Assembly: GCA_963841915.1 (NCBI GenBank)
Contig: CAWJEN010000005.1
Location: 992,001-1,056,000 of the forward strand
Origin: an uncultured Planctomycetota bacterium
GTDB lineage: Bacteria > Planctomycetota > Phycisphaerae > Tepidisphaerales > Tepidisphaeraceae
Reading direction: 5' to 3'
Length of the DNA: 64,000 bases
Below, piece after piece: positions 2,638-56,237 of the stretch (position 1 is the first letter of the stretch; the number at the start of each line of letters is the position of its first letter). The translations under genes and the position numbers were made by a program. A model generated the notes under the pieces. The model saw only the letters and a program-made list of their open reading frames with translations. It was not told the origin of the DNA and searched no databases.

Positions 2638-3321
2638 ATGCGCAACACCATCCTGCTGACCCTCTCGCTCGCCACCGCGACGCTAACCCCGGCCGCTTCG
2701 GCTGACATCATTGCCGCCTACGACTTCGGCACGCCAAGCGCCAGCACCCTCGGCGCTACGACAATCGATGACGACGCGACCGCTACGTCCTTTACCGGCA
2801 GTCCCACGGTCAACGGCCAAGCCACCTCCGTCGTCGGCACGTCGCAGAACCAGGGCTACCCCGACGAGCCGTTTTTCATCATCAGCCGCGCCAGCACCAC
2901 GGAAGGGTCCGACCCGGCCAACGTCTACTTCGAGTTCACCGTTGCCGCCGATGCCGGCTTTGAGCTGGATCTGACGAGCCTCGACTTCGATGCCGCCCGT
3001 GGCGGCGGTGCAACGCCCCGGACCTACGACATCTTTACAAGCGTCGACGGCTTTGCGACCAGCGTCACAGGCGGCCCGGTTGAACTGGTAACTGCACGGC
3101 CCAACTTCACACCGATCAGCATCGACCTCACTGACGCGGCGTATCAGGATCTGTCGACGATTACGTTCCGCGTGAACATCTTCGCCCCGAACCCTGGCCA
3201 GAACATTGATTTTGACAACGTTGTCGTCAACGGCACGGTTGCCGCCGTTCCGGAGCCGGCCGCGATGTCGGCCGTCGGTGCCGGCCTCATGCTGGTTGGC
3301 CTGCGTCGCCGTGCTCACTGA
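2638..3321 (+). CDS. PEP-CTERM sorting-domain protein
   Basis: AAGGAG RBS before ATG 2638; signal peptide; VPEP + hydrophobic helix + RRRAH tail. Confidence 0.9.
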   Translation: MRNTILLTLSLATATLTPAASADIIAAYDFGTPSASTLGATTIDDDATATSFTGSPTVNGQATSVVGTSQNQGYPDEPFFIISRASTTEGSDPANVYFEFTVAADAGFELDLTSLDFDAARGGGATPRTYDIFTSVDGFATSVTGGPVELVTARPNFTPISIDLTDAAYQDLSTITFRVNIFAPNPGQNIDFDNVVVNGTVAAVPEPAAMSAVGAGLMLVGLRRRAH

Positions 3322-49728: not shown

Positions 49729-51288
49729 TTACTGCTTCAGGCCCGATTTTGCGGCGAACGGGCGGTAGAGCGGGTCGCCGACGAGCACCATCTTCCAGCT
49801 GACGTGCGGGACCGTGGCCCAGTACGCTTCGGCCAAGGTCGCATCGCCTTTGAGCACGATCGGCAGGAACGCCCAAGGTGGTGGGAACGCGTTGAGGAAG
49901 GGCTCACTCACCGGGCCGACCGTCGCCGCTGCGCCGTCCATGAGCAGGCCGCGCGCCCAACCCTTTTCGCCTGCGTTGTGCAGACTGACCATTTCGTACG
50001 AAGCGACGTGGTACGCGACGGCCCCGCGGGCAAGGTCGAATGGGCGGTTGTAGTCGCGGAGCTGGTACCAGCCGACGTACATGGCGACGTTTTCGACGGC
50101 CGGCTCGTCATTCGCGCCGCGGGCAAAGACGGCGGGCTTGTCGTCGTGCACAACGGGCAGCGTTGCCGCCTGCTCTAACGCAGCAGCGAGGCGGCGGAGT
50201 TGTTCGTCGAACGGCGCGTAGCCGTCGGGCTTGCCGTTGGCGCCGGGCATGCGGAGGCCGCGCGAGTCGACGACGATGTTGCCGTCGAGGCCCTCGCGTT
50301 CGACAAGCAGGCTGTTGGCGATGAGGTCGCGGACGTGCTGTGGGGTGGGGCCGTCAAGGCGGGCGACCATGATGGCGTTGCCGTCGAGGCCGCTTTTGCC
50401 GCGTCCTCCTTGCAGCGGGTTGGGCAACCACAACGCCGCCGCCGGTGCCAGATCCGGCAGCGTTGCCAGTTCACTGTCGAACGAGCCGTCGGACTTGTCC
50501 TGCGTGAGGTGGCGAAGCTGCACGTTGATCAGTCCCGCGTACTGCACGAACGCCATCTGGCGACCGAGGGTGCGGGATATGTCTCGTTGTTCCGGCAGAT
50601 CGAGCCGCGTCACGGCCTCTTGAAGCTGTGCCGACTCGGCTTCGGTCAGCGGCCCGGCCCCGGCTTGCATCGGCTGAGCCATGCTTTGGCGAATGGAGCC
50701 GAGCGTCTGAATCAAGCTCGCTTTTTCGCCTTCGGTCAAGTCGTTCGCACCGGCCTGGATGAGCTGCTCGGCCACGGCCAGGCGGTTGAGCTCGAGCTGT
50801 AGAGGGCCGCTCAGATCGGGCAACTGCGGGACCGGCCGCCCGACTGCCTCGGCAGTGGTAGCCAACCGGTCGACCATCGGTCGCAACCGGGTCACGGCTT
50901 CGTCTGCTAATTGCTCGACCATCTGCCGTTCGGCCTGCTCGTCGGCGGTGAGCTTGATGCCGTCGACGCGCAGCGGCACGCCGAAGGTTGTGACGAGGCA
51001 AGACACGTCGGCCGTCAGACCGCGATCGGCAATGGCAGCCCGGAGCGGGCCGCGGACGCTGTGTTCAAATGCCTCACGCGACATCGCGTCGCCGGTCGGC
51101 AGGTCAAGCTCGACGACGCGACCGTCCGGCACGCCGCGTGTGCTGATATAGAAGTCGGCGATCTGGCGCGACTCCGGGACGTTCTTGTTGACGATCACTA
51201 GCAGATCGTCGGCCTCCAGCTTCGCACCTGCCTGCCGGCCGGTCAAAACGGTTACGATCAGGAACGACGCCAGGACGCGATGCAGCAC
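49729..51288 (-). CDS. TIGR03790-like secreted protein
   Basis: VNKNVPESRQIADFY, GVPLR, DSELA, MVARLDG, YVGWY, YHVASYE, GPVSEPFL, LVGDPLYRPF. Confidence 0.8.
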   Translation of the reverse strand: MLHRVLASFLIVTVLTGRQAGAKLEADDLLVIVNKNVPESRQIADFYISTRGVPDGRVVELDLPTGDAMSREAFEHSVRGPLRAAIADRGLTADVSCLVTTFGVPLRVDGIKLTADEQAERQMVEQLADEAVTRLRPMVDRLATTAEAVGRPVPQLPDLSGPLQLELNRLAVAEQLIQAGANDLTEGEKASLIQTLGSIRQSMAQPMQAGAGPLTEAESAQLQEAVTRLDLPEQRDISRTLGRQMAFVQYAGLINVQLRHLTQDKSDGSFDSELATLPDLAPAAALWLPNPLQGGRGKSGLDGNAIMVARLDGPTPQHVRDLIANSLLVEREGLDGNIVVDSRGLRMPGANGKPDGYAPFDEQLRRLAAALEQAATLPVVHDDKPAVFARGANDEPAVENVAMYVGWYQLRDYNRPFDLARGAVAYHVASYEMVSLHNAGEKGWARGLLMDGAAATVGPVSEPFLNAFPPPWAFLPIVLKGDATLAEAYWATVPHVSWKMVLVGDPLYRPFAAKSGLKQ

Positions 51289-51349
51289 GCCGAATCGTGC
51301 GGCAGTCCCGACGGCGAATCAACCCAACCCTCATTAAGCCATTCACGTC

Positions 51350-52300
51350 ATGAAACGCCCCGTCAAGATCGGCCTCGGCATCGTCGCGGCTGTCGTCGTC
51401 CTGCTGTTCGTTGCCGTCTTCGTCGTCCTGTCGCGGATCGACGGCATCGTGGAGCAAACCGTCGAGTCGCAAGGCACGTCGCAGCTCAATCTGCAGACGC
51501 TGCTGAGCGATGCCGACGTGTCGCTGTTCGGCGGCAGCGTCGCGCTCAACGGTTTGACCATCGCCAACCCGGAGGGTTACTCGGCAGAGCACCTCTTCGA
51601 GATGGGCCAGGTTCGCGTGGGCGTCGGCCTGACCGGGCTGACCGGCGACCCGCTGCGGATCGGCGAAATCGACATCAATTCGCCGGCGCTGACGATCGAA
51701 CGCGGCAGTGTCGGCGGCATGGCGGAGCAGCTACGGCTCAACCTGCAGGAGCTCATGGAACGGCTGGCCACTGATCCTGACGCAGAGACGACGATGCTGC
51801 TCATCGACCGCCTGACGGTGACGAACGCCCGCGTCGCCATTCGGCCGAACATCGAGGGGCTCGACGAGGAGTACGCCCTGACGTTGCCGGACATCACGCT
51901 GCGGGAGATCGGCACGGCTGAAGGTGCGCAAAATGGTGCTGAGATTGGTCGTGTCGTTGCCGACGTGGCGATGGCGCTGGCCAAGAAGGCGGCCGAGAGC
52001 GAGGACTTGCCACCGGAGGTGCGGGCAGTGCTGTCGGGCGACTTGTCGGCTATCTTGAGCAAGTACGGCGACGAGCTGTCGAACAAGGTGCGGGAAGAAC
52101 TTAACGATCAGCTCGACGGCTTGGGTGACAAGGTCGGCGGCGAAGCGGGCAAGGCGATCGACGACGTGCTCCAAGGTGCCGCCGGTGACGGGGCGAACGT
52201 GCGGGACAAGGCCGAAGACGCCGCCCGCGACGGCATCAAGAAGGGCATCGGTGGCCTGTTCGGCGGCGATAAAAAAGAGAACGACAAGAAGGACCAATAG
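51350..52300 (+). CDS. AsmA/DUF748-like envelope protein
   Basis: N-terminal TM anchor; VSLFGGSVALNGLTIANPEGY; LPDITLREIG. Confidence 0.7.
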   Translation: MKRPVKIGLGIVAAVVVLLFVAVFVVLSRIDGIVEQTVESQGTSQLNLQTLLSDADVSLFGGSVALNGLTIANPEGYSAEHLFEMGQVRVGVGLTGLTGDPLRIGEIDINSPALTIERGSVGGMAEQLRLNLQELMERLATDPDAETTMLLIDRLTVTNARVAIRPNIEGLDEEYALTLPDITLREIGTAEGAQNGAEIGRVVADVAMALAKKAAESEDLPPEVRAVLSGDLSAILSKYGDELSNKVREELNDQLDGLGDKVGGEAGKAIDDVLQGAAGDGANVRDKAEDAARDGIKKGIGGLFGGDKKENDKKDQ

Positions 52301-52348
52301 CGAGCAGACGCGGGTGCTCGACTTCCACCTGCTGCTGCTGGTGGCAAG

Positions 52349-52384
52349 ACAAGCACCTCAGACCCGAGGGTCTGAGGTGCTTGT
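52349..52384. terminator. Long hairpin, probable bidirectional terminator
   Basis: ACAAGCACCTCAGACCC / GGGTCTGAGGTGCTTGT perfect 17-bp inverted repeat. Confidence 0.8.
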
Positions 52385-52389
52385 TTGGT

Positions 52390-53463
52390 TCAAAAACCGC
52401 CCGGCATCCGTGCCAGATCCGCCGCCTGCTCGTGCCGGCGGGATCGACGGCATCCTTGGCGTCGGCGGTTGAGTTGTTCCGGCACACCTGAAGGCGGCGT
52501 GCCGGGAAAATCCGCCGGCCCGGGATCAGCGGGCGAGCGGAGGAAGTCGCGACCGGCAAAGCAACGTGGCGATCAGGCCGATGTTGCGGGCCGGCGGGTG
52601 CACCGGTGACGCCGCTGCGAGCTGACGCGGGAATCGTCTGCTCGCCCGTGCGTTCTACCCGGCGGCCGATGCGGTCGCGGGCCGCGCGGCTGGCGGGCAC
52701 GTCTGCGGGTGCCTGCCGTCGCGCGGTAAGGGGTGGCAAGACATCAAATCGGCAAGAGCAGCTCCGCTGCTGTTGTCAATTCGATGTCCTGCCCGGCATT
52801 CGCCGGGGGCGGCCGCTGCACAATCCCTGTGGGTCGGACGGCCTCGCGTGTCGCGGGCGACGTCCCCTCGGAATTGATTGACGCCACCGGCAACTGCCGC
52901 GTCTTTGTCTCTGCCCGACTCGCCCTCCGTGGAGGAGTCGCCGCTGGCTCCAAACCCGCTTCGCCCGTCGCAGATGCCCTGTGCCGGGGCGGCTGCGACG
53001 ATCGATGGGCCCGCAATCGACGGCTGGAACAAGTCCCGGCACGGCGAATTGCGGCGGCGTCTTCCCGTCCGTGGGAAGAGGCCGATAGAGCCTGAGGTGG
53101 CCAACATCCGTGTCGGCCCGGCTCGTTCAAAGACGCATGGGTGTGTCTGGTGTGACTCCTGGCCGGAGATCAGTGGGTGACGGCTGCGGCCACGGTGGCA
53201 CAGCTGCGTCGTGTTCCTTGCCCCCATCGCCTTGGCTGCGGAGGTGCCTGCCGGTGAAGGCAGTGGCACATCCTCGCGTCATGATCAAGCCCTTGGGCTG
53301 ACCGATGACGGGCGCTCGCGGCGGGGGCTGGCGGTGACACCAGCCTTGGTGTCGTTGCCGTTGTCTGGTTGTCGGGAAGACGGGCCATCCGTGCCGCGTC
53401 CTTAGTCTCTCCCGGTGCGGCAGTGCCGCTTCTCTCCGTGGGGCGATCCGTGCCCGTTCTGTC
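52390..53463 (-). ncRNA. Candidate CsrA/RsmA-sequestering RNA (CsrB/RsmZ-like), possibly the 3' extension of mraZ mRNA
   Basis: No credible ORF; 7x CACGGA, 2x CAAGGA, 1x CAGGGA and 1x TAAGGA on the minus strand only, many in hairpin loops. Boundaries approximate. Confidence 0.65.
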
Positions 53464-53985
53464 TCAAACTGCCTTCGCGGCGGCGGCCTTGTAGCGGTCT
53501 GCCAGCTGCGGGCGTTGCTTGTTCTTCAGGTCGAGGTAAGCTCGCCATTCGGCCCGGGGCCAAAGCTGCAAGTGGTTCTGGACACCGACCAGAACAACGT
53601 CGCGGCCGAGCCGCTCGCGGTCGACACTCGACTCGGACAAGACGACCCGGCCCGCCTTGTCCGGCGTGAGGCGAAGCGCCTGGCCGAAGAGGACGAGCAT
53701 GTAGTCGAGCTGGTCGGGATCGGGCACCGGGTCGGTCGTGCTGGGTGCGACGTTGCGGCGGTAGTAGTGTTCCGGATACAGCCACAGTTGATCGTTAGGC
53801 CCCGTGATGAGAATGAAGCTCGAACCATCCCGTGTCTCGTCGAGCGCCTTTCGGACGTCGGCAGGAATGAGGAGGCGGCCTTTTTCATCAATGGTGAGAT
53901 CGTGGTTGCCGATAAAGAACGGGCCGGGTGCCGGCTGTTCCAAAGCGGGTGGTTGTTCGGTCGGGCTCGTCGCTGACGTGGTCAC
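53464..53985 (-). CDS. mraZ: Division/cell-wall cluster transcriptional repressor MraZ
   Basis: FIGNHDLTIDEKGRLLIPA, LWLYP, DKAGRVVL, VVLVGVQNHLQLW (two SpoVT/AbrB repeats). Confidence 0.9.
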   Translation of the reverse strand: MTTSATSPTEQPPALEQPAPGPFFIGNHDLTIDEKGRLLIPADVRKALDETRDGSSFILITGPNDQLWLYPEHYYRRNVAPSTTDPVPDPDQLDYMLVLFGQALRLTPDKAGRVVLSESSVDRERLGRDVVLVGVQNHLQLWPRAEWRAYLDLKNKQRPQLADRYKAAAAKAV

Positions 53986-54039
53986 CTCGAGCTGGTCATC
54001 CCCGCGCTGCGTGGAAAGCCGCCGATGCGGCTTCGAGAT

Positions 54040-54092
54040 CCACTGGCTGGGCTGACGTGGGAGAGCTTACCACTCTGCCCCACTGATGCCAA
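54040..54092 (-). promoter_or_regulatory. mraZ sigma70 promoter with MraZ-box-like GTGG repeats
   Basis: TTGGCA (54092-54087), 17 nt, TAAGCT (54069-54064); GTGG at 54083-80 and 54073-70 (10-nt period), another in phase at 54043-40. Confidence 0.7.
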
Positions 54093-54399
54093 GGTCGGCT
54101 CTTTTTTCGTGACGTGTGGCTGCAACGTGCCGCAAACTTAGTAAGATCGCCCGCCCGCCCGTCATCCTAATCGCCTAACGAATAACGGTTTGCGAACTTA
54201 TCTACGACCCATCAAGAATGAATGCGGGGAGCCGTCGCTTTTCGCGGGGCCTGCCATTCCTTCTAACGAGGGATGACCAACGACCTGCTAGAGCAGCGTC
54301 GAACCCATCCGGTGGGGCGTCGGCCCACACGCCTCCAGCCGCCGTGGTGTGGTTCTGTCGGCACGAAACGACATGCGTGTCAGCAAAGACCAGTCGGCG

Positions 54400-54801
54400 T
54401 CAGAACACGAAGTGGGTCGCCATCCCACCGGCAGCCAACGCAAGAACAAGCAGCGACAGGCGACGAAGCGGGCGATGAAGCCGCACCACAAGCGGAGACA
54501 AAGCGTTCACCAGCAACGTGGTCATGAGGACCGGAATCGACGGGACAACGGGCCGAGCCAGCGACAGCGCCTCTGCTGTCAACAGGCAGCACACCAATAC
54601 GAACAGCACGGCCGCTGATCGCGGGGTGCTTGCCGCCTGTGTCGCAAGCAGCAGCACACTCACGACAAGCGTTGCCGAGACGGCCCCACCTGCGTCCTCA
54701 GGCCACGCGGCCACGCACAGCAATGCTGCCAGGCCCAGGCCCGCCAACAGCGCGAGCGCGGTTCGCTCACCGCTTGAAGAAGCTCTTGCCGTCGCCGTCA
54801 T
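54400..54801 (-). CDS. Hypothetical membrane protein
   Basis: Several hydrophobic helices; start uncertain. Confidence 0.5.
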   Translation of the reverse strand: MTATARASSSGERTALALLAGLGLAALLCVAAWPEDAGGAVSATLVVSVLLLATQAASTPRSAAVLFVLVCCLLTAEALSLARPVVPSIPVLMTTLLVNALSPLVVRLHRPLRRLSLLVLALAAGGMATHFVF

Positions 54802-56237
54802 ACTTGCTCAAGCGGTTGTGAACGTACAGCCCTTCGAGGAGCAACTCTCCGCACCCGGCGAGTACTTGCGGATCGTCGGGGTCCATCTGCAGTGCCCGGC
54901 AGATCGTCCGCGCACCGTCTTTCAGGCCGTCTACAAGGCCCATGTTGTCGACGAACTCCTTCGCCGGCAGCTCATCGTCGGCCGGAAAGCTGAGGTTGCC
55001 CTCGAACTGTTCGCTGATGCCGTCAAAATCGTCGGGCGTGGCGACGGTGTCAAAGACGTTCTTGATCGCCTCGCCGATGAGACTCTTGATGAGCTTGTCC
55101 TCGCTGGCGTCGTCCTCGGCGAGCGTCATCTCGACCTTGCCGCGGGAGCTGGCGACAAGGTGCTGCAGATCGCACGGCCGAACGGCGACACGCTCTTCAC
55201 CGGTGAGAATGCCGCGACGCTCGGCGTTGCTGACAGCAGCTTCAAGGTTGGCGATGCTCGTCCGCACAGATACACCCGACGCCTGGACTGACGTGCGGAC
55301 TGGTGCGGGCGAGGCGGACGACTTCCTCGATAATGAGCTGCATGAACGGCGGCACCACCACCCCGACACCGCTGCCCGAGACGCCCTCGTTGCGGTCGAG
55401 CCACGCATTCTCCCGGGCGATCTCGATGCCTTCCTGGGCGGTGCTGGGGTAGTGCGTCCGAATGACGGTGCCGATGCGGTCCTTGAGCGGCGTGACGATG
55501 CGGCCTCGGTTGGTGTAATCCTCCGGGTTGGCGCTGAACGTCAGGAAAACGTCGAGCTCGAGGCGGATCGGATAGCCGCGGATCTGCACGTCGCGCTCTT
55601 CGAGCACATTGAACAGACCGACCTGGATGCGTGGCGAGAGGTCAGGCAACTCGTTGATGGCAAAGATGCCACGGTTGGCCCGCGGGATCAGGCCGAAGTG
55701 CATCGTCGTCTCGTCGCTGAGGTAGCGGCCCTCTGCGTGCTTGACGAGGTCGATTTCGCCGATGAGGTCGGCGATGGTGACATCTGGTGTGGCGAGCTTC
55801 TCCTGATACCGCTCGCGGCGGTGGACCCACTCGATGGGCGTGTCATCGCCATGCTCGGTGATCTTGCGGCGGCCGACCTGCGTGGCCGGATGGATCGGGT
55901 CGTCGTTGAGTTCGAGCCCGCCGATGACGGGAATCCACTCATCGAGCAGGCCCGGCAGCATGCGGAGGATGCGTGTCTTGGCCTGGCCGCGAAGGCCCAG
56001 GAACAGCAAGTCGTGCTTGGCGAGCAGACCGTTAACGATCTGCGGGACGACGCTGTCGCGGTACCCGCGGATGCCGGGGAACAGGTCGCTGCCGTCGCGA
56101 AGCCGCTGGATGAGATTCTTGCGCAGCTCGTCCTTTACGGGAAGGAACTGATAGTCCGTCTCCTTCAGCTGGCCCAGAGTGGCCGCGGCAGGGTGGTGGC
56201 TGGTGGTCTGGTTGATGGGGTTGCTGGTGGCGGGCAT
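54767..56237 (-). pseudogene. Magnesium-chelatase-subunit-like AAA+ ATPase with one +1 frameshift near 55285-55287 (pseudogene or sequencing error)
   Basis: GLRGQAKTR, EKLATPD, INELPDL, ANPEDYTNRGRI...SPHVS|QASGVSVR...LEGLY; removing 1 nt gives 490 codons. Confidence 0.85.

Follow-up and report, generated by a model that had tools for sequence, protein, structure and literature searches.

A predicted non-coding RNA behind mraZ in a phycisphaeran planctomycete that probably binds or soaks up CsrA

Directly behind the cell-division regulator gene mraZ of an uncultured Planctomycetota bacterium (class Phycisphaerae; assembly GCA_963841915.1, contig CAWJEN010000005.1) lies a stretch of about 1.07 kb, at positions 52390–53463 of the 64,000-nucleotide (nt) window of DNA that was analysed. 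Judged from its sequence, the minus strand of this stretch, which is also the strand of mraZ, probably encodes an RNA that binds or soaks up the global translation regulator CsrA, in a group for which no such RNA has been described. The evidence consists of a strand-specific array of A(N)GGA motifs presented largely in hairpin loops, the use of the same motif at probable CsrA targets of the genome, and the retention of the motifs behind mraZ in relatives. Coordinates are those of the window unless they carry the prefix of a contig (C5, C6) or a locus (L followed by a number), and sense denotes the strand of mraZ.

A recount of the motifs agreed exactly, in number and position, with an earlier note on this DNA, which had been made from the sequence alone and had proposed a Csr-type sponge here. 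The minus strand of 52390–53463 carries seven CACGGA (plus-strand TCCGTG at 52407, 52926, 53068, 53107, 53388, 53435 and 53447) and 11 ANGGA, namely these seven and the sites at 52453, 52824, 53215 and 53399; the plus strand has zero CACGGA and zero ANGGA. Genome-wide, CACGGA occurs at 0.178 per kb per strand, and when strand-specific 1074-nt windows are ranked by CACGGA count the region comes second in the genome, behind a simple tandem repeat. Seven CACGGA were not reached in any of 5000 shuffles of the region that preserved its dinucleotides (shuffle mean 0.80), which bears out the claim that the hexamer exceeds chance expectation, and 11 of 5000 reached 11 ANGGA (shuffle mean 4.03). Plain GGA showed no enrichment in the same shuffles (23 observed, 22.1 expected), and because CACGGA and ANGGA are enriched while GGA is not, the signal lies in the context of the GGA.

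The motifs are also presented in a particular way. When ANGGA were scored for placement in the hairpin loops of local minimum-energy folds, seven of the 11 in the region lay within loops (mean unpaired probability 0.74), as compared to 35 of 300 random genomic ANGGA (unpaired probability 0.44), 12 of 121 arbitrary positions of the region and one of 13 GGA not preceded by A-N. Under a stricter rule requiring at least four consecutive pairs that close a loop of 4–8 nt, the region has four sites per 1.1 kb, a count that places it among the 25 highest of 72,574 sampled windows. Of the eight windows that rank highest under this rule, six are clearly coding and one (C6:274771-275870) has only weak periodicity; the region alone lacks clear codon periodicity. 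The loops named in the earlier note fold as it described, except for CAC-AGGGAUU-GUG, which is not the preferred local fold. The sites and hairpins are as follows, in sense order.

53388..53455, minus strand: 5' cluster of four sites (local folds; fold of 53365-53463)
53441-53455, minus strand: GGGC-ACGGAUC-GCCC hairpin (unpaired probability 0.99)
53435-53439, minus strand: single-stranded CACGGA (unpaired probability 0.46)
53399-53403, minus strand: UAAGGA, mostly paired (unpaired probability 0.06)
53388-53392, minus strand: GGC-ACGGAUG-GCC hairpin (unpaired probability 1.00)
53215..53219, minus strand: isolated CAAGGA outside hairpin loops (unpaired probability 0.48)
53060..53118, minus strand: two strong hairpins at a distance of 39 nt, each with a GGA that is fully unpaired in its loop
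53099-53118, minus strand: GGCCGACA-CGGA-UGUUGGCC hairpin (local fold)
53060-53079, minus strand: UCUUCCC-ACGGAC-GGGAAGA hairpin (local fold)
52926..52930, minus strand: CACGGA in the loop at the tip of a CUCC/GGAG-type hairpin (unpaired probability 0.86; fold z-score -0.47)
52824..52828, minus strand: CAGGGA in a weak candidate hairpin (unpaired probability 0.38; no loop in the local minimum-energy fold)
52396..52470, minus strand: 3' terminal module of three hairpins with a closing outer stem (fold)

The double hairpin at 53050-53125 has a fold z-score of -3.43, with one of 200 shuffles as stable, and the other sub-domains are not clearly more stable than their shuffles. The 3' module consists of a hairpin with an AAGGAU loop (site 52453-52457), a central GC hairpin and a hairpin with a CACGGAUG loop (site 52407-52411). 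Several sites occur in pairs 11–46 nt apart, at sense positions 12/24, 60/71, 352/391 and 1006/1052. CsrA dimers bridge sites that are 10–63 nt apart, and these pairs would suit such bridging. The form CANGGAUG, which we take to be that of a high-affinity CsrA site, is present among the motifs.

The stretch after mraZ is non-coding. The range of guanine-cytosine (GC) content across codon phases is 0.03–0.18 over 52380-53460 and 0.35–0.53 in the flanking genes; none of the nine open reading frames (ORFs) of the stretch had a Pfam match; and the longest (204 amino acids, aa) matched only itself among 5.8 billion proteins, all in keeping with the earlier observation that no protein-like ORF follows mraZ. 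A broken or frameshifted protein gene, one of the alternatives that the note had listed, was rejected given that there is no periodicity, no Pfam match, no homologue and no trace of the small ORF described below, and a six-frame comparison of the stretch with the mraZ-downstream gaps of relatives gave a best expect value (E) of 0.03. Rfam 15, applied as an E-value scan to 51000-55500 and to the loci of six relatives, yielded no Csr or Rsm family; its matches were sub-threshold chance ones, none of them close to a gathering score. Around the stretch, the locus is laid out as follows.

53464..53985, minus strand: mraZ coding sequence, 173 aa (ORF list; PF02381 MraZ, E 5.2e-22, two domains)
52395..53463, minus strand: predicted body of the non-coding GGA-motif RNA, probably a 3' extension of the mraZ transcript (no codon periodicity, no homologues)
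52390..52417, minus strand: terminator-like element, a 7-pair hairpin with CACGGA in its loop followed by CGGUUUUUGA (consensus terminator scan)
52349..52384: long perfect hairpin between the convergent units (14–16 pairs in the whole-region fold)
51350..52300, plus strand: convergent AsmA/DUF748-like gene that bounds the locus (ORF list; PF05359 and PF05170 matches)
54040..54084, minus strand: AGUGG/AGTGG present three times upstream of mraZ, with two of the copies 10 nt apart (read from the sequence)

The distance from the mraZ stop to the convergent AsmA/DUF748-like gene is about 1.16 kb, the ORF list has no minus-strand gene downstream of 52390-53463, and the rsmH gene of this genome lies on another contig (C6:1063873-1064748). 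The first GGA hairpin begins 12 nt past the mraZ stop with no promoter or terminator match between, which makes co-transcription of the predicted RNA with mraZ the simplest reading. At the other end, the final CACGGA hairpin (52417-52400) and its CGGUUUUUGA U-run fit the terminator consensus. The long hairpin at 52349-52384, which has T-rich tails on both strands and was a partial match in the terminator scan, is probably a two-way terminator that also serves the convergent gene. The AGTGG repeats at 54040-54084 bear what we take to be a resemblance to MraZ boxes, and may constitute an MraZ operator and hence mark the promoter region for both mraZ and the RNA.

The genome encodes CsrA (PF02599, 88.8 bits; C5:766030-766416, which is L004 3028-3417 on the minus strand), as well as FliW (PF02623) in the adjoining gene, so that both proteins for which the earlier note had suggested a search are present. 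They sit in a cluster of flagellin-like/FlgL, FliW, CsrA and flagellin genes. The CsrA protein is 129 aa long, with a canonical 52-residue domain followed by a long tail rich in Pro, Ala and Gln; a second, weak CsrA-like match (29 bits) lies at C5:213172-213342. Within the cluster, the flagellin leader has two CACGGA 12 nt apart directly before the ATG, the second overlapping a GGAAGGA ribosome-binding site, the csrA leader has two CACGGA directly before its ATG, and the probable fliW leader has two CACGGA and one CAAGGA before its ATG. From its placement in these leaders, CACGGA is probably the local CsrA site of this genome.

We also compared the csrA leaders of 29 relatives and the studied genome, 30 in total (the set includes one unpublished genome, G006, on which no result depends). 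At least one ANGGA lies within 90 nt of the csrA start in all 30 leaders, and most of them (L059-L087, assessed by eye) combine a AGGAAGGAG-type ribosome-binding site with a short upstream hairpin that carries A[ACGU]GGA(U) in its loop. This layout, found across the class, is that expected for autoregulation by CsrA, and its recurrence in csrA leaders points to the hairpin A(N)GGA as the lineage's own CsrA-type site. By analogy with the behaviour of CsrA on the hag, flaA and csrA leaders, as set out in the excerpts consulted of PMC7652899, PMC13443453 and PMC4894983, CsrA of this lineage very probably recognises A(N)GGA that is presented in hairpins.

The motifs behind mraZ are retained in relatives, and the surrounding sequence is not. 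A blastn search of the region against 40 relatives gave only two short matches at chance level, with no similarity found even within the genus, and a sensitive local blastn gave a single 47-nt match; MraZ itself has only 47–60% identity within the genus. In the 1200 nt after mraZ, sense ANGGA exceed antisense in 27 of the 28 relatives' loci that have enough sequence, the remaining locus being a tie. We compared sense and antisense counts of all k-mers over the delimited mraZ-downstream gaps of 18 relatives, excluding the studied genome; the top 5-mers were ACGGA (63:8, in 18/18 loci) and AAGGA (47:5), and the top 6-mer was CACGGA (36:1, in 16/18 loci). The same gaps hold 168 ANGGA in sense as opposed to 29 in antisense, with 76 of the 168 within hairpin loops, and in the focal genus each mraZ-downstream stretch has 8–14 sense ANGGA despite having no nucleotide similarity. 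Motifs that are kept where no sequence can be aligned look like the outcome of selection on motif content, as in known sponges. The inspection of Phycisphaerae downstream of mraZ that the earlier note had called for has thus shown that relatives keep a GGA-rich non-coding stretch.

The genomic setting of the stretch differs within the family, labelled f1 here. Outside the focal genus the f1 gene order is mraZ, a spacer of 500–1300 nt, rsmH and a LysM protein gene; rsmH came next after the spacer in nine of the 12 such loci submitted to Pfam, and the others had ScpA, an ORF with no match or no ORF submitted. Members of the focal genus have a spacer of 1.05–1.5 kb followed by a convergent AsmA-like, GGDEF or amidohydrolase gene, with rsmH elsewhere. 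As no rsmH lies downstream in the focal genus, the stretch is not a 5' leader there, yet the motifs are retained.

The f1 spacers also contain a conserved module of about 80 nt with four helices (L014:2368-2460, L024:2322-2415 and 17 other f1 loci; alignment A3), comprising an outer stem, a CACGGA-containing hairpin, a CCCUCG/CGAGGG hairpin and a GGGC-A(N)GGAU-GCCC hairpin. A covariance model of this module, R1, recovered it from all 19 f1 genera other than the focal one and from none of 11 loci of other families. In an alignment of 21 sequences, which was fitted to the R1 model and thereby favours the structure, 96.5% of cells are paired and 12 of 21 pairs show compensatory change, with none of 500 shuffles scoring as high; slid controls collapse. 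The module has no Rfam match, and of its two GGA one lies in a loop and the other within a helix. R1 is weak in two of the five focal-genus genomes examined (G001, 20.6–22.8 bits; G004, 18 bits), the studied genome being among the five, and it has no significant copy anywhere in the studied genome, where its best placement in the locus scored 7.4 bits with E of 1. This placement coincides with the 3' three-hairpin module at 52396-52470, which has the same architecture, and both GGA of the latter align with the modules of the congeners G001, G003 and G004 (alignment A4).

We extended the comparison to a class sample of 151 genomes, examining the sequence downstream of mraZ in 84 loci. In family f3, 16 of the 17 genomes gave no csrA match, and the single match comes from a small contig in an assembly with 8% contamination; csrA was likewise not found in G143, a complete genome of family f65 with two csrA-bearing relatives. 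A first class-wide tally of ANGGA was confounded by a conserved small ORF of about 70–117 aa between mraZ and rsmH and was redone with this ORF masked. In the masked data, A(N)GGA in sense reach 15.7 per kb at the 68 csrA-positive loci (34.1 kb), 7.4 of them loop-presented, and 3.7 and 0.6 in antisense; the corresponding values for the 16 csrA-negative loci (2.0 kb) are 6.5 and 1.5 in sense and 2.0 and 0 in antisense. Loop-presented A(N)GGA after mraZ are accordingly about five times denser in genomes that bear csrA than in those that lack it, a difference that fits a CsrA-dependent feature. Within f65, csrA-negative G143 has a gap of 5 nt between mraZ and rsmH, and its csrA-positive sisters G211 and G218 have gaps of 221–223 nt with three ANGGA each.

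The small ORF occurs in families f2, f3, f6, f8, f10, f11, f13, f64 and f66 and at one f4 locus (mraZ-rsmH spacers of L130-L148, L151-L159, L164, L167-L169, L173-L176, L186-L187 and others), with the recurring pattern RL..VQALGG.Y..V.FSPD; in f2 its ribosome-binding site, AAGGA, lies in the loop of a small hairpin. It is absent from f1 and was undetected in the region or in the studied genome, the best matches (tblastn E 0.04, profile E 0.026) being in unrelated places. In the rest of the phylum, mraZ almost directly adjoins coding sequence at 39 analysable loci (median gaps of 0–120 nt); apparent exceptions are low-GC genomes, in which the periodicity test is unreliable.

The densest arrays were found in family f5 (L189:594-840 and L188), where 8–10 hairpins of GC-AGGAU-GC type, with AGGAU or AAGGAU loops, lie within 210–430 nt directly after mraZ, up to a density of eight hairpins in about 210 nt. 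They are followed, ahead of rsmH, by a long GC hairpin with U6 or U9, which the simple terminator scan missed because the loops exceed 8 nt. By analogy, this array has the classic layout of a Csr/Rsm sponge and would be the clearest sponge-like version in the class.

These observations can be brought together as follows. The roughly 1.07 kb after mraZ would be transcribed together with mraZ and end at the GGA-loop terminator at 52417-52390, and the resulting RNA would display about 11 A(N)GGA sites, seven in short hairpin loops and several paired 11–46 nt apart, to the CsrA dimer. It would thereby bind and titrate CsrA as a sponge built into the mraZ transcript, and free CsrA, as part of a module of FliW, CsrA and flagellin, would follow transcription from the mraZ promoter. 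The AGTGG repeats in front of mraZ, with their 10-nt spacing, would put synthesis of the RNA under the control of MraZ, linking transcription of the division operon to the control of CsrA, FliW and flagellin. We infer transcription of the region, binding of CsrA and action in trans from features of the sequence, and the link to cell-division control from position. Our confidence differs among these steps: that CsrA binds the predicted RNA appears likely, while the idea that a 3' extension of the mraZ transcript titrates CsrA seems to us evenly balanced. The fullest version, in which Phycisphaerae carry behind mraZ a dedicated Csr-type RNA antagonist that is driven by MraZ, couples the division operon to CsrA-controlled flagellin and times the building of the flagellum, is tentative and must be held with some doubt.

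Several of our own results weigh against a sponge. The region has about one site per 100 nt, much sparser than in canonical sponges and more like an mRNA leader with several sites; the strand-specific loop GGA array and the presence of csrA fit a sponge, and the site density, about five times under that of CsrB and RsmZ, does not. The region ranks second in the genome for CACGGA, and under the strict hairpin rule it is not the top window of the genome (four sites versus a maximum of five). The comparison by csrA status amounts to two independent losses and 2.0 kb of csrA-negative sequence, with approximate gap limits and masking, and the hairpin test of the relatives used a control from the studied genome and not from their own genomes. 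In the f1 module, helix 2 pairs the first GGA, with all pairs kept and with one-sided variation only (G-C, G-U, A-U) and no compensatory pair, so not every GGA is a free site. No sigma-70-type promoter match was found in 52200-54400, although this consensus may not suit the promoters of the phylum. Finally, in most f1 genera the stretch lies inside a mraZ-rsmH unit, and no sense-strand terminator was found in the two f1 spacers scanned, an arrangement that a role in cis fits equally well or better.

Such a role would make the stretch a CsrA-responsive element of the mraZ/dcw transcript that governs RNA stability, processing or read-through (for example by Rho) into rsmH; in the focal genus, where rsmH has moved, a variant would act only on the stability of the mraZ mRNA or be a relic. 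The position of the spacer between mraZ and rsmH in f1 outside the focal genus, the leader-like site density and a sense strand with 36% C as opposed to 32% G all speak for it, and CsrA-driven Rho termination is established for the pgaA leader of Escherichia coli, according to the excerpt consulted of PMC4052769. However, the C-over-G bias is not general in relatives, the last ANGGA of the f1 relatives lies more than 100 nt upstream of rsmH with none overlapping its start, and in f5 the terminator-like hairpin separates the array from rsmH. The studied genome, moreover, has no downstream gene and has two terminator-like hairpins, yet it has kept 11 sites. We regard a cis element, the main rival, as less likely than a sponge, while giving it real weight; roles as a sponge and in cis are not mutually exclusive. 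It is less probable still that the stretch is a structured RNA or a platform for another RNA-binding factor, with (C)ACGGA(U) loops that merely resemble CsrA sites. The f1 module, with its strong covariation and lack of an Rfam match, and with one of its GGA inside a helix, is the best argument for such an RNA, but flagellin, csrA and fliW, all textbook targets of CsrA, have this motif at their ribosome-binding sites, loci that lack csrA have the loop-presented motif at about one fifth of the density, and neither the module at the locus nor any other R1 match in the studied genome reached significance.

Two further explanations were weighed. The stretch might be decaying or functionless DNA, for instance the remnant of a lost small ORF, with a motif excess due to chance or composition. 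Many families of the class do have a small ORF at this position, and the sequence is not conserved even among members of the genus; nevertheless, no trace of that ORF was found in region or genome, the shuffles never reached the CACGGA count, the motifs are enriched in the gaps of 18 of 18 relatives, and presentation in loops is far above the controls, and we give this explanation very little credence. The least probable reading that we considered is a signal at the DNA level, in which TCCGTG/CACGGA repeats act as operators for a DNA-binding protein such as MraZ. All motifs share one orientation, like direct-repeat operators, and adjoin mraZ, but they are irregularly spaced over 1 kb, lie within strand-specific hairpins and occur also at ribosome-binding sites in mRNA leaders, and different repeats (AGTGG, with 10-nt spacing) occupy the place upstream of mraZ where an MraZ operator is expected.

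Returning to a CsrA-binding RNA, its closest functional analogues are CsrB/CsrC and RsmX/Y/Z of Gammaproteobacteria, which likewise are non-coding with many A(N)GGA in hairpin loops, have a 3' hairpin resembling a Rho-independent terminator (carrying GGA in the locus studied here) and a cognate csrA, and undergo fast sequence turnover while keeping the number of motifs. Canonical sponges have about one GGA hairpin per 15–30 nt. Unlike these RNAs, the region has no Rfam match and, over its roughly 1.07 kb, about one site per 100 nt as opposed to about one per 20 nt; it directly follows mraZ with no promoter match of its own, and it belongs to a FliW-type CsrA system in Planctomycetota. Given the missing Rfam match and the canonical density that the studied genome does not reach, the RNA is not a member of a described family.

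In origin, the closest parallels are antagonists embedded in mRNAs. The flaA leader of Campylobacter jejuni, the fim 5' untranslated region (UTR) of Salmonella and FimR2 of E. coli are, like the RNA proposed here, untranslated parts of mRNAs that titrate CsrA; the consulted portion of PMC9723502 describes FimR2 as a 3' UTR-derived CsrA antagonist, and that of PMC4894983 has the flaA leader acting alongside FliW. These examples differ in having one or two sites or being short RNAs, as opposed to some 11 sites spread across 1 kb downstream of a gene for a cell-division regulator, in a position conserved across the class. Leaders that CsrA regulates at several sites (pgaA, glgC), and cases in which CsrA promotes Rho termination, are similar in spreading several GGA sites over an untranslated stretch of an operon, and most relatives' stretches precede rsmH; in contrast, no site here overlaps a downstream ribosome-binding site and the studied genome has no downstream gene. 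The GGA over a downstream ribosome-binding site that marks repressed leaders of the hag/flaA type is lacking in the RNA and is found in the flagellin and csrA leaders of the same genome. Finally, UpsM of Rhodobacter sphaeroides, a long untranslated 5' leader of the dcw cluster, has a regulatory role in cell division as described in the consulted part of PMC5089854. It resembles the RNA in being unusually long and untranslated on an mraZ/dcw operon, and differs in lying upstream of mraZ and in working via a small RNA (sRNA) and RNase E, not CsrA. UpsM is not known to be rich in GGA.

To our knowledge, RNA antagonists of CsrA are known essentially from Gammaproteobacteria. Planctomycetota are a poorly studied phylum that is not known to rely on FtsZ for division. 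In open-access papers and preprints we found no description of such an RNA for CsrA of Planctomycetes or Phycisphaerae, or of a link between mraZ and CsrA, in agreement with the earlier statement that no planctomycete example had been characterised. The consulted passages of PMC13443453 place CsrA in roughly a third of bacterial genomes and describe it as common in Planctomycetota, and those of PMC4894983 state that many CsrA-bearing bacteria lack sRNAs of the CsrB/C type and that FliW and CsrB/C are anti-correlated; outside Gammaproteobacteria the protein FliW is regarded as the CsrA antagonist, in excerpts of both PMC7652899 and PMC4894983. If the proposal is correct, Phycisphaerae would provide the first CsrA sponge with multiple sites from outside Gammaproteobacteria, in a FliW-type system thought to be without RNA antagonists, and a conserved multi-GGA RNA in such a lineage would show that sponges and FliW can coexist. 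The RNA would physically tie a global translation regulator to the mraZ/dcw operon and would give a testable entry into post-transcriptional control in Planctomycetota. Its signature, namely a position after mraZ, strand-biased GGA in loops and loss where csrA is lost, could be used to find such loci in cultured relatives.

Two other parts of the genome were considered as possible second sponges and rejected. At C6:380120-380300 (L003 ~3150-3290), the top CACGGA window of the genome, about 13 tandem copies of the 8-mer GGCACGGA are followed by GGTGCGGA variants in an intergenic position upstream of a divergent ParA-like gene; the candidate there (C6:~380150) is a plain (GGCACGGA)n tandem repeat without hairpins. 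The candidate at C6:296731-298320 (ANGGA 16:2) encodes a repeat protein, and its ACGGA come from Asp-Gly codons. This segment has a lower GC content (~55%), DAFVARL-like repeat units and weak codon periodicity, so that it mimics ANGGA-rich non-coding DNA, and its product is probably a foreign beta-propeller-repeat protein. A short gene at C6:275200-275900 is flanked by two pairs of a palindrome roughly 25 nt long (GTGCCACGACACGGAGTGTCGTGGA together with a near reverse complement of it), which looks like a repeat of the repetitive extragenic palindromic (REP) or miniature inverted-repeat transposable element (MITE) type.

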